The notes under the pieces are model-generated. The model saw only the letters and a program-made list of their open reading frames with translations, was not told the DNA's origin and searched no databases. From a virus (Duplodnaviria > Caudoviricetes), in IMG/VR virus record IMGVR_UViG_3300037419_000748, positions 1 to 43,984 of that record: a stretch of 43,984 nt of DNA. One strand, given 5' to 3'. Both the position numbers and the translations under genes were made by a program. This document shows, one piece after another, positions 3,115 through 20,307 of this stretch. How positions within the stretch are numbered: position 1 is the stretch's first letter; the number at the start of each line of letters is the position of its first letter.

Positions 3115-3285
3115 ATGGACGAGCTTCTACAGAAGATGCGCGCCTTCGCCTCCGAGCCGGGCGCGCTCTTTTACGTCGTCAAGACTGCAACTCGCGGCGC
3201 CGTGCCCGTTTGGGCCGACGATATCCGCGCAACAGCCACCGATGCGGAATTGCTCGCGCTTGTACAGGCACGCATCAACTCGTGA
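3115..3285 (+). CDS. Hypothetical protein (56 aa)
   Basis: MDELLQKMRAFASEPG...; fills the gap between Rz and the next gene. Confidence 0.55.
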   Translation: MDELLQKMRAFASEPGALFYVVKTATRGAVPVWADDIRATATDAELLALVQARINS

Positions 3286-3292
3286 GGAAAGC

Positions 3293-4489
3293 ATGTCCGA
3301 AGCACGCAAGTACGACCCGCAGCTGCGTCAATTCGCCACGCCGCAGCAGGCACGATACCTCGACGCCGTGATTGAGCACGGTGGCATCCGGCCAGCATCG
3401 CGTGCGCTGGGTGTGAGCAAGGGCACGATTTGCTCCGCCCTTGACCGCATCGACAGAGCCGCCGCGCGTCAGGGATACTCGCCGGCGCACGACATGGCAC
3501 ACGTTGTGCCTGATGGGTTCTTCGTGAAAGGCGTGTCGACGTATTACGACAAGGAGGGCAAGCCATCGGGGCAGTGGGTCAAGTCGGCGATCGACCAGGA
3601 GCGCCAGCGCGAGATCATGCGGGCCGCCGTAGCCGCCATGGTCGAGGAACTCCCGCGCGCAGAACCGATGAAGGCGCCGGCGCTGACCGATGCGAAGCTG
3701 GCCAGCGTCTATACCCTGACCGATAGCCACGTCGGCGCCATGTGTTGGCACCGCGAGAACCTGGACCCGAACGGTGATTGGGATCTATCGATCGCCGAGC
3801 GAACTCTGGTCGGCTGCTTCGAGCACATGGTCAATGCAAGTCCGGCAGCCCGGGTAGGAATTGTTGCCCAACTAGGGGATTTTCTGCACTCAGACGGCAT
3901 GGGTCTGATTGAAGGCAGAACGCCCACCTCCGGTCACATTTTGGACCAAGACGGCCGCTTCTCGAAGGTCGTGCAGACTGCAATCCGGATCCTGCGCCGC
4001 GTGGTCGGCTTCGCGCTGCTGAAGCATGAGCGTGTCGTCGTGCTCATGGCAGAGGGAAACCACGACCTGGCCAGCTCTGTTTGGTTGCGCGCGATGTTCA
4101 AGGCGCTGTACGAGAACGAGCCACGGGTCGAAGTCATCGATTCGGAGCTTCCGTATTATGTCTATCAGCACGGCAAGACCATGTTAGCGTGGCATCACGG
4201 CCATCTGAGAAAGAACGACCAACTTCCGCTATTGTTTGCCGCGCAGTTCCCGAAGGTGTGGGGCGATACGACGCGCAGATATGCTCACACGGGCCACCGC
4301 CACCATTTCGAGGAGAAAGAGCATTCCGGTATGTCTGTCGTGCAGCACTCGACTTTGGCGACTCGCGATGCCTACGCGGCACGCGGCGGCTGGATGAGCG
4401 ATCGGCAATGCACGGCTATCACTTACCATACGGACTTTGGTCAGGTCTGCCGAAACACGGTCACTCCGGAGATGCTGCAAGTGCCGTGA
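3293..4489 (+). CDS. N-terminal HTH plus calcineurin-like metallophosphoesterase
   Basis: HTH (GIRPASRALGVSKGTI); motifs DSH, GDFLHSD, GNHD, HGH, GHRH; RBS GAGGA. Confidence 0.85.
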   Translation: MSEARKYDPQLRQFATPQQARYLDAVIEHGGIRPASRALGVSKGTICSALDRIDRAAARQGYSPAHDMAHVVPDGFFVKGVSTYYDKEGKPSGQWVKSAIDQERQREIMRAAVAAMVEELPRAEPMKAPALTDAKLASVYTLTDSHVGAMCWHRENLDPNGDWDLSIAERTLVGCFEHMVNASPAARVGIVAQLGDFLHSDGMGLIEGRTPTSGHILDQDGRFSKVVQTAIRILRRVVGFALLKHERVVVLMAEGNHDLASSVWLRAMFKALYENEPRVEVIDSELPYYVYQHGKTMLAWHHGHLRKNDQLPLLFAAQFPKVWGDTTRRYAHTGHRHHFEEKEHSGMSVVQHSTLATRDAYAARGGWMSDRQCTAITYHTDFGQVCRNTVTPEMLQVP

Positions 4490-4707: not shown

Positions 4708-4730
4708 TGCTATACTGTTTAAATGTACAG
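4708..4730 (+). promoter_or_regulatory. Extended -10 promoter overlapped by a LexA (SOS) box
   Basis: TGcTATACT (4708-4716) and CTGT-TTAAATGT-ACAG (4715-4730). Confidence 0.8.
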
Positions 4731-5016
4731 CATCGTCAAACGACTTCGACAGCGCGGCCGGCGCCTGGCAGACCGCGAGATATCCGCCAGCACCGGCGTT
4801 CGTGGTGAAATGGCGGTAGCGATTGTTGGGTTCCGGCCGCAAGCCAAGCTGTACGACCCAAACGACCAACAACGGAAACCGCTCATCCCTGAGCTTCAAA
4901 ACGCCCAGTTGATCACCATGACGATGACGGGCATGCTCTTTTACGGTACTGAGCAGGCCGACGACGGCGCCGAGTATGTGCAGGAATGGTCGGTGCGGCT
5001 GGTCGGCTCCGATTAG
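4723..5016 (+). CDS. SOS-regulated hypothetical protein (97 aa), probably leaderless
   Basis: ATG sits inside the LexA box 7 nt after the -10; no SD. Confidence 0.75.
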   Translation: MYSIVKRLRQRGRRLADREISASTGVRGEMAVAIVGFRPQAKLYDPNDQQRKPLIPELQNAQLITMTMTGMLFYGTEQADDGAEYVQEWSVRLVGSD

Positions 5017-6269
5017 GCGGCCCTGGGCGACCCCTTCAGCGGGACGACGTTCCAGGGCAGACCCTTCTCGCACGCGACGAGGAACGATGCCCATAGCTCG
5101 AGCGCCTGGCGCCGCTCCGGGATTTCGTCGCGCACGTCGTAGACAGCCTCCATTCCCTTGAGGGTGTGGTTCAGCGCGATCTCTGAAATTTCCCGCGATA
5201 CGCCGAGGTTGCGCATGTGGCCCTTCGCGGTACTGCGGGTGTCGTGCGGGGTGAATTTCCGTGTCTGCAAAGCGCCGCGCTCGAACGCGCGATACAGGGC
5301 GGCCGATAGGGTCGACCTTCCCACATGCTGGCCAGCGCGGCGATCATCCCTGGCTGGCAACACCCACGGCGAGCCGCCGGCGAGCCGCTCCAGTTCCTTG
5401 AACCATCCAGCAACGGTCGGGGTGATCGGGACCAGAAAGCCGACCCGGGTCTTTACGGACTCGTCGGGCACGAACCAGGTGCCGCGGTCGAAGTCGATAT
5501 GTTCCCACCGCGCCTTGACGAGTTCAATGGTACGGACGCAGGTCGCCAGCATGATTTTCAGTGCCAGCCCATTCTCGTCGCCGATATCGCCGACGGACGA
5601 GAGTAACTTGCGCAGCTCGTCTTCCTGGAGCATGACGCGCTTGCGTATGGGTGGGCGCGGTCCCATCAGGGCTGCCAATTTGATCCCCGACGTTGGGCTG
5701 ATCTTGATCAACTGCCGGCCAATGGCGTGCTCGAACAATTGCGTGGTCGTGCTCAAGATCCGTTTCTGCATGACCCAGCCGCGGCCGGATCGCTCGAGCA
5801 TGCTGACGATATCCTCGGCGATGACCGACTGAACATCGAGAGGCCCGAGCTTCGGCAGGATCACTTTTTCCAGATCCCACTTCTTTGCCTTGACGGTCCC
5901 GGGTGCTAGCTCGCCGGCGTCAAGCACCTTTGCAGTCAAATCATCGGCCAGCCGGCGCACGGTCCAGGCTCCGCGCAACTTCAGGCGCTCTGCGCGCTTT
6001 TCGGCCGCTGGATCCTGTCCTTTGTCGACCGCGACGCGGTGTTCGCTTGCCATCTTGCGCGCCGCCGCCAGACTGATATCGGGGTAATTCCCGATGGTCA
6101 ACTCCCGCGCGCGACCTTCGCGCATGTACCGCAGTATCCATGAGGCAGTCCCGGCTTTGGACAGAGTGAACGTCAGGCCGCCGCCATCGGACTTTGCGAC
6201 TGGTTCGCCGGCCGCTATCCACCGGCGGATCTGGATGTCACTGAGCAGGTTTGTTCCGCGCTTCGCCAT
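5013..6269 (-). CDS. int: Tyrosine integrase with N-terminal arm-binding domain (P4-like)
   Basis: SDGGGL...W..RY...GRARELTIGNYPDISLAAAR; catalytic R (CVRTIEL), K, HDTR, LNH, Y. Confidence 0.96.
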   Translation of the reverse strand: MAKRGTNLLSDIQIRRWIAAGEPVAKSDGGGLTFTLSKAGTASWILRYMREGRARELTIGNYPDISLAAARKMASEHRVAVDKGQDPAAEKRAERLKLRGAWTVRRLADDLTAKVLDAGELAPGTVKAKKWDLEKVILPKLGPLDVQSVIAEDIVSMLERSGRGWVMQKRILSTTTQLFEHAIGRQLIKISPTSGIKLAALMGPRPPIRKRVMLQEDELRKLLSSVGDIGDENGLALKIMLATCVRTIELVKARWEHIDFDRGTWFVPDESVKTRVGFLVPITPTVAGWFKELERLAGGSPWVLPARDDRRAGQHVGRSTLSAALYRAFERGALQTRKFTPHDTRSTAKGHMRNLGVSREISEIALNHTLKGMEAVYDVRDEIPERRQALELWASFLVACEKGLPWNVVPLKGSPRAA

Positions 6270-18012: not shown

Positions 18013-18192
18013 CTAGTTGAACTTCATGGCCGGGACGTCGAACCCATCGGCCATCAGGTTCGCTTCCACGTGGTTTATGATCGGGTTCTCGCGCCAGGCC
18101 TTCGAGAAGCGGAAGCCGGTCAGGCGCATCACGGGCGCCGCGATCACGGCCATCGCGCGCATGGGCTTGTAGTGGGTTTTGCTGACGTCCAT
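18013..18192 (-). CDS. First gene of pL operon (59 aa)
   Basis: MDVSKTHYKP...; GAGGAG RBS downstream of pL. Confidence 0.6.
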   Translation of the reverse strand: MDVSKTHYKPMRAMAVIAAPVMRLTGFRFSKAWRENPIINHVEANLMADGFDVPAMKFN

Positions 18193-18232
18193 GATTTGCT
18201 CCTCACTGTTATCTTGTGCTGAACCAATGACT

Positions 18233-18263
18233 CCAGTTTAGTGTGGACTAAACTGGTCGTCAA
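18233..18263 (-). promoter_or_regulatory. pL-like promoter with repressor operator
   Basis: -35 TTGACG, 17 bp, -10 TAAACT; palindrome CCAGTTTAGT-GTGG-ACTAAACTGG (GTTTAG-N6-CTAAAC, also at oR). Confidence 0.8.
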
Positions 18264-18313
18264 GCGAAATATAAACAGTTTAGAGAAAATTTGGCTTGGA
18301 TTGCAACAGGCGT

Positions 18314-18335
18314 AAAAAAACCCGCGATTGCGGGT
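18314..18335 (-). terminator. Rho-independent terminator ending the cI/arc transcript before pL
   Basis: CCCGC-AATC-GCGGG-T7 on the minus strand. Confidence 0.8.
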
Positions 18336-18452
18336 CGGTGCGTGCCAACTATTTTCTTTAAGTCAATATCTTGTGACTCGTCCTTTGATGGAAATCAGTG
18401 TTTCCGACGCTACATTGTAAAGTAGCCTTCCGGTTTAGAATGCTATACACTA

Positions 18453-18468
18453 CTGTTCATATATACAG
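18453..18468. promoter_or_regulatory. LexA (SOS) box
   Basis: CTGT-TCATATAT-ACAG, near consensus; preceded by -10-like TGcTATACACT. Confidence 0.8.
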
Positions 18469-18577
18469 TGGTTCTGAACCAAAAAGCCAAGGAACATCGG
18501 TGCCGGTACCTCCGGCACACCCTTCGATATGACGCCAAGGACATCTAATAGTGTTTGCGATGGAACGGCTGCCAGAG

Positions 18578-18793
18578 CTATGCGAGCAGCTGGCGAATCA
18601 GCGATTTCATCTCCGCGACTTCGCTGCTCAGCCTGGCAAGCTCATCCGCCTTGAACGAGGCCTGCAGTCTTGCAACGATTTCCGCGTTGAGTGACACGCC
18701 GCGAGCATCCGCTGCAGCCTGGATCTCATCATTAAGCGCACGGGGAAGACGAAGTGTCTTCTTGACTAGTTCTTGGTTTTTGGAAATTTCCAT
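18578..18793 (-). CDS. Arc-family ribbon-helix-helix DNA-binding protein
   Basis: KTLRLPRALNDEIQAAADARGVSLNAEIVARL. Confidence 0.85.
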   Translation of the reverse strand: MEISKNQELVKKTLRLPRALNDEIQAAADARGVSLNAEIVARLQASFKADELARLSSEVAEMKSLIRQLLA

Positions 18794-19030
18794 CGCGCGA
18801 TTTTGCGCGACAGGAGAAGAAAGTGTTGTTTTTGGTGGCGCATATGCCACCAGAATCCGGCATAAAACGTAAAATCGATTTTGCCGTCAAGTATGCTTTC
18901 TACAGGGAAGCGATGTTTTTCGGCTATCAAAAATCGAAAGTAAAACGGGAATGCCTCTCTATTTCCGTTTATGTAACATTTAGATTTCTATAGCATTTAA
19001 TTCTTAGTTGCCATCCGTATAAGAGACACC

Positions 19031-19270
19031 ATGCCAAATAAGACTGAGCGGTGGAATGCAGCTTTCGCCTCGATGGATGATCGTGCGCAGGATGAGATTT
19101 TGCGATGGGCCGAGCAAATGGCCCAGGATCACCCCCGGAAACAGGTTGGCAGACGCAAGCAGGATACCCTGCTAACCCTCGTTGCCTCGAACGTTCTGGC
19201 TCGGCCGGCACAAGGTCTCGGCCAGGCGGAGCATGTCCGACCGGCCACGCTCATCAGTTCTGTGAAATAA
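19031..19270 (+). CDS. Small protein resembling the CI C-terminal helix pair; candidate antirepressor
   Basis: RWNAAFASMDDRAQDEILRWAEQM aligns to CI RLLELFHRTDERGRSDMLRLAETL. Confidence 0.6.
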   Translation: MPNKTERWNAAFASMDDRAQDEILRWAEQMAQDHPRKQVGRRKQDTLLTLVASNVLARPAQGLGQAEHVRPATLISSVK

Positions 19271-19552
19271 CTCAAGCAATCGGATGGCCTGGAGAAGCGT
19301 GTCAGGGGCCTGCGCATGATGCAGGTGAGAGTTCATGTTGCTCGACGCTGGCTCTTGGTTATCTGGGGCGTCGACGGTATCTAGAAACATCTCGCCCATG
19401 CCGTAAGTGTTTTCTAGGCGTCGCGCCGCGCGCTCACCGAAGGGATTGCCTTCCTTCAGGAGCTGGGAGATGTAGCTCTTTTCCTTGGGCGGGATGGATC
19501 GCGTCGCGAACCACTCTCGCAGCCTTGCTCGGCGGATGTCTTGGATTTGCAT
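19172..19552 (-). CDS. cI: CI-like repressor (126 aa), no S24 peptidase domain, probably leaderless
   Basis: IRRARLREW....SYISQLL...FGERAARRLE...G..FLD HTH; divergent from cro; TTGCTT-17-CACAAT places +1 at the ATG. Confidence 0.8.
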   Translation of the reverse strand: MQIQDIRRARLREWFATRSIPPKEKSYISQLLKEGNPFGERAARRLENTYGMGEMFLDTVDAPDNQEPASSNMNSHLHHAQAPDTLLQAIRLLELFHRTDERGRSDMLRLAETLCRPSQNVRGNEG

Positions 19553-19563
19553 CCTAGTATTGT

Positions 19564-19629
19564 GATTAGCATTCCCTAAACAAGCAAATACTTGACTTCG
19601 TGCGCCTTGTGGTTTAGAGTGCTCTAAAC
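19564..19629. promoter_or_regulatory. oR region: two operators and pR
   Basis: GATTAG-N6-CTAAAC (19564-19581), GTTTAG-N6-CTAAAC (19612-19629); TTGACT-17-TAGAGT. Confidence 0.75.
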
Positions 19630-19659
19630 TAGTTAAGTTTTCTTTCGAAAAGAGGTCGC

Positions 19660-19911
19660 ATGAAGCTCCGTGAATACCTGAATGCAGAGCGCGGCTCGTC
19701 GGCGCGCCTGGCTGCTCAACTTGAAGTCTCACCGTCGTACCTTTCACAAATGGCAGCGGGGGATGCCGCGATCTCGCCGGCGCGCTGCGTGCTGATCGAA
19801 CAGTACACCGACGGTGCCGTTACGCGCCGTGATCTGCGCCCAAAAGACTGGATGGACATCTGGCCCGAGATCAGGCCGGCGCGGAAACAGCAATGCAGCA
19901 GGGCTTCGTAG
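19660..19911 (+). CDS. cro: Cro/YdaS-family regulator
   Basis: LAAQLEVSPSYLSQMA.G...ISPARC..IE..TDGAVTRRDLRP.DW..IWPE. Confidence 0.9.
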   Translation: MKLREYLNAERGSSARLAAQLEVSPSYLSQMAAGDAAISPARCVLIEQYTDGAVTRRDLRPKDWMDIWPEIRPARKQQCSRAS

Positions 19912-20046
19912 CCCTGATTGCAGATTAGTCGTTGCAACAACCTTTTTAAAGCAGTCCCTGAAGTCGTGTAGCACGGTTCACAAAAACAGTACCAGCAACG
20001 CCAGGCAACAGCAGTCACTTCCTTGTAGCACCGCTTTATAGGAGTA

Positions 20047-20307
20047 GTGATGAAGAGCAGGAAGAGCGTAGTTGTTAAAGCTTTGTTCAGCGTCGACCAA
20101 TTCATGGCGCTGGACGAAGAGTGCACTGATGCAGACCTATCACATAGCGAGCTCCTTCGAGAGTTAGCGAATGCTTGGGTACAGCAGCGTCAGTCTACTA
20201 AAGCCGGGAACCAGGGTAAATGGGCAGTCACTGGCCAGAAACTGGCCATTCCAAACGCCCACTCCCGGGTGAACTATGGCATCGCCCCCGTGCGCCTGAG
20301 GGTTTGA
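20047..20307 (+). CDS. Putative regulator at the cII position (RHH-like)
   Basis: VVVKALFS...ALDEEC...LSHSELLRELA; AGGAG RBS. Confidence 0.55.
   Translation: MMKSRKSVVVKALFSVDQFMALDEECTDADLSHSELLRELANAWVQQRQSTKAGNQGKWAVTGQKLAIPNAHSRVNYGIAPVRLRV

Follow-up and report, generated by a model that had tools for sequence, protein, structure and literature searches.

In the arbitrium phages of Bacillus, such as phi106, aimX is a gene of 29-80 aa that lies opposite to, and sometimes overlaps, the gene for a short repressor, aimC; the AimX-AimC heterodimer was shown to block AimC oligomerisation (10.1101/2025.11.23.689978). According to the available portion of that report, aimX lies downstream of a LexA site and is LexA-controlled in phi106, and many of its relatives have no LexA site (10.1101/2025.11.23.689978). 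The classic small helical mimic of an oligomerisation domain is SinI of Bacillus subtilis, which forms a heterodimer with SinR and thereby releases the DNA (PMC6123443; the mimicry as described in 10.1101/2025.11.23.689978). LexA-controlled antirepressors are also described for other temperate phages and elements: Tum in phage 186, AntC in N15, GfoA and GftA in Gifsy, and Rem, which acts on DicA (PMC3121763, PMC10448788, as excerpted). The repressor PaaR2 is reported to be without an autocleavage motif and unresponsive to mitomycin C (PMC8630535). Here we compare these systems with a small gene that converges on the gene for a short phage repressor.

The immunity region and its repressor

The window, by which we mean the whole stretch of 43,984 nucleotides that was analysed (IMG/VR record IMGVR_UViG_3300037419_000748), is one virus record with a lambdoid prophage layout. 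An integrase gene (5013-6269) is followed by a leftward recombination operon, the immunity region (18235-19911), and then replication, terminase, portal, and head genes. The closest named genome match of the repressor CI was Massilia polaris (46% identity), and repressors with the same type of tail were named from Herbaspirillum, Pseudoduganella, and Massilia; together these matches point to a host of the Oxalobacteraceae type. The immunity region contains a PL-like promoter on the minus strand (18235-18263), with a perfect operator palindrome at 18235-18254, and a PR-like promoter on the plus strand (19592-19630), with a perfect operator palindrome at 19611-19630. A Cro/YdaS-like gene is encoded on the plus strand (19660-19911; PF15943, E 1.9e-11), and an intrinsic-terminator-like site on the minus strand (18319-18336) closes leftward cI/arc transcription ahead of PL. 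The CI-operator pattern was matched four times in the window, each time inside the immunity region, where 1.17 matches in the window would be expected. A search of positions 18100-20100 for known RNA families returned two matches, both below the gathering score. The gene after cro (20047-20307) had a weak RHH_1 match (E 0.055) and is not a homologue of CII or YdaT. At the other end of the layout, an ORF at 3242-4489, just outside the integrase end and near a second SOS box, matched phrog_704 (DNA repair exonuclease, E 3e-116).

The initial annotation described CI as a repressor of 126 aa without an S24 autoprotease domain. The length was confirmed (cI, 19172-19552, minus strand), and a Pfam scan of CI gave no match, hence no S24 domain; the peptidase that marks a lambda-type repressor was not found. 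The DNA-binding domain at the N-terminus is instead homologous to that of PaaR2/RacR-type repressors: the alignment of CI matched the solved PaaR2 domain (PDB 7NKV) with an E value of 1.2e-27 in a sequence-profile comparison, and a Foldseek search paired the CI model with the PaaR2 N-terminal domain at E 1.4e-4. In the predicted fold of CI, a disordered linker joins this three-helix domain to a hairpin of two helices (residues 85-115; 19208-19300, minus strand; predicted helices 85-98 and 101-115), which we infer to be the self-association domain. The hairpin may be a distant relative of the long helical C-terminus typical of PaaR2 (hhalign 54.6% for one of five such profiles), and the predicted helix of CI stops at residue 115. 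Among isolated phages in GenBank, CI had four matches, all to its N-terminal part.

The small convergent gene and its family

On the plus strand, a 79-aa ORF (19031-19270) encodes the candidate decoy antirepressor; as the initial annotation had observed, it overlaps the 3' end of cI, and the convergent overlap measures 99 nt (19172-19270). Substitution patterns showed this to be a genuine gene under purifying selection. Over 33 codons outside the overlap in eight close relatives, this phage included, pooled pS was 0.74 and pN 0.19, and dN/dS ranged from 0.06 to 0.29 in the 15/28 pairs that were not saturated. The codons for the hairpin core of the protein (residues 4-33; 19040-19129, plus strand) lie outside the overlap. 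In the structural model, helices at residues 4-14 and 17-33 have pLDDT values of 85-98 and the tail is of low confidence. The gene has a weak ribosome-binding site.

The ORF is widely conserved: a search with a 17-sequence profile recovered a family of 244 clusters at 50% identity (E <= 1e-3). Among the best 150 of these clusters, lengths were mostly 49-87 aa and several members were tandem two-domain proteins. In the consensus, two helices are separated by a turn at MD and followed by a P and an LxLV motif. The natural tandem fusions, with two family domains per chain (P0063, P0076, P0091, P0092, P0102, P0156, P0182), suggest that the domain works as a dimer. When 120 aligned members were scanned, Pfam, PHROG, and NCBIfam gave no meaningful match for any of them; a SinI domain was detected in 0/120 at E <= 0.01, a KilAC/ANT match in none, and the Tum, AntC, GfoA, and Ant families were likewise unmatched in these three libraries, which may not model all of them. 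A PDB sequence search with the 17-member profile found nothing significant, a fold search of the model against a viral structure library found nothing at E <= 0.001, the ESM Atlas offered only unnamed clusters below 0.9, and isolated phages in GenBank held no real match. A literature search, drawn mostly from articles outside subscription, found no paper describing the family.

A 24-residue ungapped alignment between the small protein and the CI C-terminus, on which the initial annotation drew, was recovered with 8/24 identities; taken alone it is modest, as 7/1000 shuffles reach its score, and pairwise BLASTP of the two proteins gave no alignment. The resemblance is convincing only at the family level, where hhalign matched the small family to the tails of 32 paired repressors at 90.2% (E 1.5e-6, score 31.7 over 32 columns). 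Controls scored lower: 8.4 for the reversed alignment, at most 13.1 for 100 column shuffles, at most 11.5 for eight unrelated helical profiles from the same loci, and 6.6-20.0 for five other repressor tails, the highest being the profile of a PaaR2-type C-terminus from enterobacteria, probably a distant relative. A six-frame search of the window with the family HMM (two candidates scored) matched the small gene and the CI hairpin (E 2.1e-4), and the CI tail and the core of the small protein are both predicted to form helix-turn-helix hairpins. By these profile comparisons, the small family was shown to be homologous to the CI C-terminal hairpin.

The hairpin is also a generic module. Four of six weak class-level matches belong to a different, unrelated family of about 120 aa that opens with the same hairpin motif (L259, L260, L263, L264; no Pfam match for the one member scanned). 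Cognate CI and small-protein pairs were slightly more alike than non-cognate ones (p 0.027; 22 dereplicated pairs, 10 near-copies having been dropped), with many cognate ranks poor. The conserved LxLV tail of the small family is absent from the CI hairpin, so the small protein may have another partner. In many paired repressors, a strand-like LVYV or LMWV stretch stands just before the hairpin (L009-L011, L017, L019, L139, L142, L147, L156, L161), and the CI of the window is without it; where present, this stretch might pair as a sheet with the LxLV motif that follows the hairpin in the small protein.

Echoes between the DNA of the two genes had been taken as traces of an old inverted duplication. 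The echoes exist, but identity over the alignment is 37/72 against 32.4 +/- 2.6 expected from the amino acids, with 10/24 at third positions; because DNA identity is near that given by the amino acids alone, a local inverted duplication is unsupported, and we rejected it as the origin of the small gene. The module of small gene and repressor is old and widespread.

The pairing of the two genes was followed through 141 distinct relatives of CI, of which 129 were complete with at least 200 nt of downstream sequence. Within these 129 loci, the small gene was found beside 19/94 short CIs and 0/35 long ones (a length class starting at 195 aa), a count that is partly circular because 17/19 positives helped seed the profile. 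By eye, a diverged copy missed by the HMM was seen in L169 and L173; L170 has a CI tail of this type and no small gene. Searching from the small protein yielded 17 further convergent pairs. At the level of the family to which the M. polaris genome belongs, 30/301 genomes, one of them unpublished, were matched (20 candidates scored per genome), and the 30 best loci comprised 13 convergent pairs, 13 unpaired copies, three unconfirmed, and one spurious. A genus search added five more pairs, two of them near-identical, and at the class level 7/400 genomes matched, with zero new true members.

All 37 repressor-paired copies overlap the 3' end of a short repressor gene in one fixed codon phase (32/32 pairs and 5/5 later ones), even though the DNA-binding domains of the repressors differ. 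In each of the 37, the repressor stop lies antisense to the LxLV motif or close to that position; in the window, a Leu codon of that motif, read in reverse complement, is the cI stop. An S24 domain was found in 0/22 paired repressors scanned. The N-terminal domains of 32 paired repressors form 10 clusters, and an eight-member subgroup that spans four of these appears in both the tail tree (support 99/97) and the small-protein tree (93/92, under the threshold set by the tool). A subgroup shared across DNA-binding-domain clusters implies that tail and small gene travel as a cassette; this co-travel is not evidence of contact between the proteins, because the overlap alone explains co-inheritance. 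The LxLV motif is kept in unpaired copies as well, which marks it as a constraint on the protein and not a shadow of cI. The comparative part of the decoy idea in the initial annotation thus stood: a real protein, homologous to the CI tail, that in its paired form is always head-on with a short repressor of non-S24 type.

We extended 14 unpaired copies to 14 kb and scanned 96 selected proteins from them. A Pfam integrase was present in 6/14 regions and an AlpA or excisionase gene in two; Arc pairs, ORF6N, and Rha/KilAC genes were common neighbours. Unpaired copies are often in tandem and far from any matching CI. One (L270) sits in a prophage whose repressor is of the S24 type, within its early operon. 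In another (L277), which lies between tail genes and behind a divergent Arc/Arc pair, the domain continues into a longer, fused C-terminus; this segment (L277:6830-7943) is a P22 immI-like module flanked by the genes for tail tube and tape measure, its gene encoding the family domain at the N-terminus, and P22-like phages are reported to carry ant in a comparable slot (PMC2629481). Compact satellite-like elements (integrase, AlpA or Arc pair, small genes) hold one to three unpaired copies each (L265, L266, L268, L269, L272, L274, L275, L276), and one copy in L265 is fused to a longer C-terminal region.

LexA boxes and Arc-like genes upstream

A strict LexA-type SOS box, CTGTTCATATATACAG (18453-18468), is kept in 8/8 close relatives. 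It is one of two strict boxes in the window, where 0.40 would be expected, and it agrees at 17/20 positions with the E. coli consensus. Two -10-like elements on the plus strand, TAGAAT (18436-18441) and TACACT (18446-18451), face arc and the small gene. The box had been placed about 560 bp upstream of the ORF, and this was borne out: it starts 578 bp and ends 562 bp before it, with arc in between. An imperfect CI-operator-like site (18432-18451; two mismatches to the operator pattern) abuts the box, so CI may help LexA keep the promoter shut. The promoter points head-on at arc, 110 bp past the arc stop. Between the box and the small gene, no conserved terminator was found in the eight close relatives (weak hairpins in 5/8), nor was a short conserved ORF found right after the box across the same eight. 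A 41-aa frame after the box, open in 5/8 relatives, overlaps arc, looks like an antisense by-product, and was rejected.

Among all pairs, a LexA box precedes 17/37 copies, 43-152 nt upstream of the small gene in nine pairs (one box imperfect) and 555-756 nt upstream in eight close relatives, this phage included. In the first set of pairs, 15/32 have no box or only a weak one, and 0/5 of the later pairs have one. A supposed box in L017 was spurious on inspection. A -10-like hexamer faces the small gene at 14/17 boxes and away from it at 1/17. Strict boxes within 1 kb downstream of cI occur in 12/19 loci with the small gene, in 0/75 short-CI loci without it, and in 2/35 long-CI loci. The boxed loci are not independent, since the eight distant-box loci are one clade and 7/9 near-box loci are another. 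SOS control through the 18453 promoter is plausible but less well founded than first annotated, and a feature of this clade, 20/37 paired copies being without a convincing box within 1.2 kb. At six loci (L003, L008, L013, L014, L030, L057), variable lipoprotein-like or membrane moron genes lie between the LexA box and PL, on the box side far from the small gene; the window has none. The second LexA box of the window (4715-4730) overlaps a TATACT -10 element and contains the ATG of a 97-aa ORF (4723-5016; phrog_5560, unknown function) whose end abuts the integrase; this segment (4709-5016) likely holds a leaderless SOS-induced gene.

The intervening gene is an Arc/Mnt-like ribbon-helix-helix gene (18578-18793, minus strand; PF03869, E 1.4e-7), 71 aa from its ATG or 90 aa from a GTG at 18850, and divergent from the small gene. 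The initial annotation had cast arc as an antisense target only; a divergent Arc-like gene turned out to be the commoner neighbour, present in 25/37 pairs. A palindrome, GGTGGC-N6-GCCACC (18834-18851), sits 41-58 nt before the Arc-like gene start and is the only perfect copy in the window. It is perfect in the eight close relatives and L016, and with up to two mismatches it was found in 12/25 Arc loci (in L140 far off, probably by chance) versus 0/12 non-Arc loci; it is likely the operator of the Arc-like protein. In the segment 18793-18851 and in relatives, a -10-like nAAAAT ends 7 nt before the Arc-like gene's ATG, with CAACA at the -35 position. The gene looks leaderless, and a leaderless layout with a locus-specific palindrome just upstream of arc would fit self-activation.

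A probable decoy for a non-cleavable repressor, its rivals, and its relatives

We think it probable that the small protein is a SinI/AimX-like decoy that caps CI, and so a likely antirepressor of a repressor that cannot cleave itself. By form it fits the decoy class, being small, predicted to be helical, similar to the repressor C-terminus, and without a DNA-binding domain. If the CI hairpin self-associates, a free hairpin that binds it would replace one CI subunit in the CI oligomer; CI would leave OL and OR, PL and PR would be derepressed, and lytic growth would follow. With no DNA-binding head, the small protein is expected to be dominant-negative, like SinI. DNA damage would free the LexA-boxed promoter (18436-18468), and a rightward transcript from it would cross arc in antisense and continue into the small gene; for this phage, we put the chances of that SOS route at about even. 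The Arc-like protein, bound at 18834-18851, would be a likely second layer of control, like Mnt and Arc on P22 ant.

Homology predicts binding and not its sign, and the small protein might bind the CI hairpin yet protect or tune lysogeny, as a co-repressor subunit or as a sink for foreign antirepressors. Pairs with no nearby LexA box (20/37) would suit such a role, as would the unpaired members in other mobile elements, which could be the attackers to soak up. We regard it as improbable: the LexA boxes directly upstream in nine pairs, mostly with a -10 element facing the gene, fit expression on DNA damage, and a protein that has the domain but no DNA-binding head should act as a dominant negative, as reported for SinI (PMC6123443, in part). 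To a similar degree, we doubt that the true target is a repressor of another prophage in the same cell, or some other protein that the LxLV tail binds, the gene remaining beside cI by descent. That proposal would account for the 13/30 best family-level loci that are unpaired, often tandem, and distant from a matching CI, for the early-operon copy of L270, a prophage that has an S24 repressor, and for the weak cognate specificity; the Gifsy antirepressors, too, are described as acting in trans (PMC3121763, as excerpted). It sits poorly with the fixed in-phase overlap with short repressors in 37/37 pairs and the absence of the gene beside 35 long CIs, and with a CI that has no self-cleavage domain in a window where no other antirepressor family was found among 73 ORFs scanned.

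Induction might alternatively operate on RNA, with the LexA promoter shutting down arc and cI through antisense RNA or colliding transcription and a secondary role left to the small protein. The promoter does indeed point head-on at arc from 110 bp beyond the arc stop, the box is not followed by a conserved ORF, and the 3' end of the small gene is antisense to 99 nt of cI; but selection on the hairpin is strong at the protein level, unpaired copies keep hairpin and LxLV with no cI to be antisense to, and the authors of the AimX work, in the available text, judged an antisense effect most likely not consequential (10.1101/2025.11.23.689978), so that we consider this quite unlikely. Very unlikely indeed is a chance antisense frame whose resemblance to CI reflects helix periodicity. 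The missing BLASTP alignment, the lack of a Pfam or PHROG family, and the weak ribosome-binding site would be expected of one; a family of 244 clusters, a profile score well clear of the controls (shuffled, or helical but unrelated), and selection outside the overlap (dN/dS about 0.1) contradict it.

A decoy of this kind would suggest how prophages with short, non-cleavable repressors can be induced, and the candidate antirepressor family, which Pfam, PHROGs, and NCBIfam do not annotate, is recognisable from sequence. Its cassette recurs with DNA-binding domains that are unrelated, and its upstream control is of at least two kinds. Should the unpaired copies act in trans, they would offer a simple route for cross-induction between prophages and satellites. 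We raise only tentatively, as a possibility we rather doubt, that prophages and satellites of Massilia-like bacteria are linked by the free-hairpin family in a network of cross-talk. Each temperate phage would own a decoy as a swappable cassette, with repressor tail and decoy head-on under various DNA-binding heads and LexA or Arc wiring, and solo, tandem, or fused copies would cap foreign repressors in trans; satellites or rival prophages could then induce helpers or break immunity.

Several described systems share parts of this arrangement. The repressor itself resembles PaaR2/RacR with YdaS (PDB 7NKV; PMC8630535) in its N-terminal domain family, its YdaS-like Cro, and the reported lack of a peptidase motif; it differs in that their hairpin runs into a long helix, and no enterobacterial-type locus examined had the convergent gene. 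P22 immI (mnt, arc, sar, ant) is described as placing ribbon-helix-helix repressor genes beside an antirepressor gene, with possible antisense control (PMC2629481), whereas here the cI immunity region itself contains the Arc-like gene and that of the candidate antirepressor, a protein with no relation to Ant. With Tum, AntC, GfoA/GftA, and Rem the likeness would be indirect SOS induction of a short, uncleaved repressor. In contrast, the available text of those reports describes no mimicry of a repressor tail (PMC3121763, PMC10448788), the small proteins match none of them in the three libraries scanned, and the Gifsy antirepressors are reported in a module apart from the immunity region (PMC3121763). 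SinI shares with the small protein its small size, its helical nature, and its resemblance to the repressor's oligomerisation domain, putative in the case of CI; SinI/SinR is a chromosomal biofilm switch whose genes are co-transcribed and not convergent, and no SinI Pfam match was found among the 120 family members scanned.

The closest known system is AimX/AimC. As there, the small gene lies opposite to and overlaps a short repressor gene, here beside cro. AimX is located downstream of aimR-aimP, whereas the upstream neighbours here are the Arc-like gene and the PL operon, and neither an AimR-like match nor an aimP gene was found among the 73 ORFs scanned. AimX is highly divergent, with homology to the AimC tail unreported in the available portion of that work; the family described here is detectably homologous to the repressor hairpin, and it further differs in its proteobacterial host, its divergent Arc gene, and its unpaired copies. 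The module is real, conserved, and unannotated, and its probable mechanism is one already known from Bacillus; it would extend the SinI/AimX design to proteobacterial phages, with visible ancestry in the repressor's own tail.
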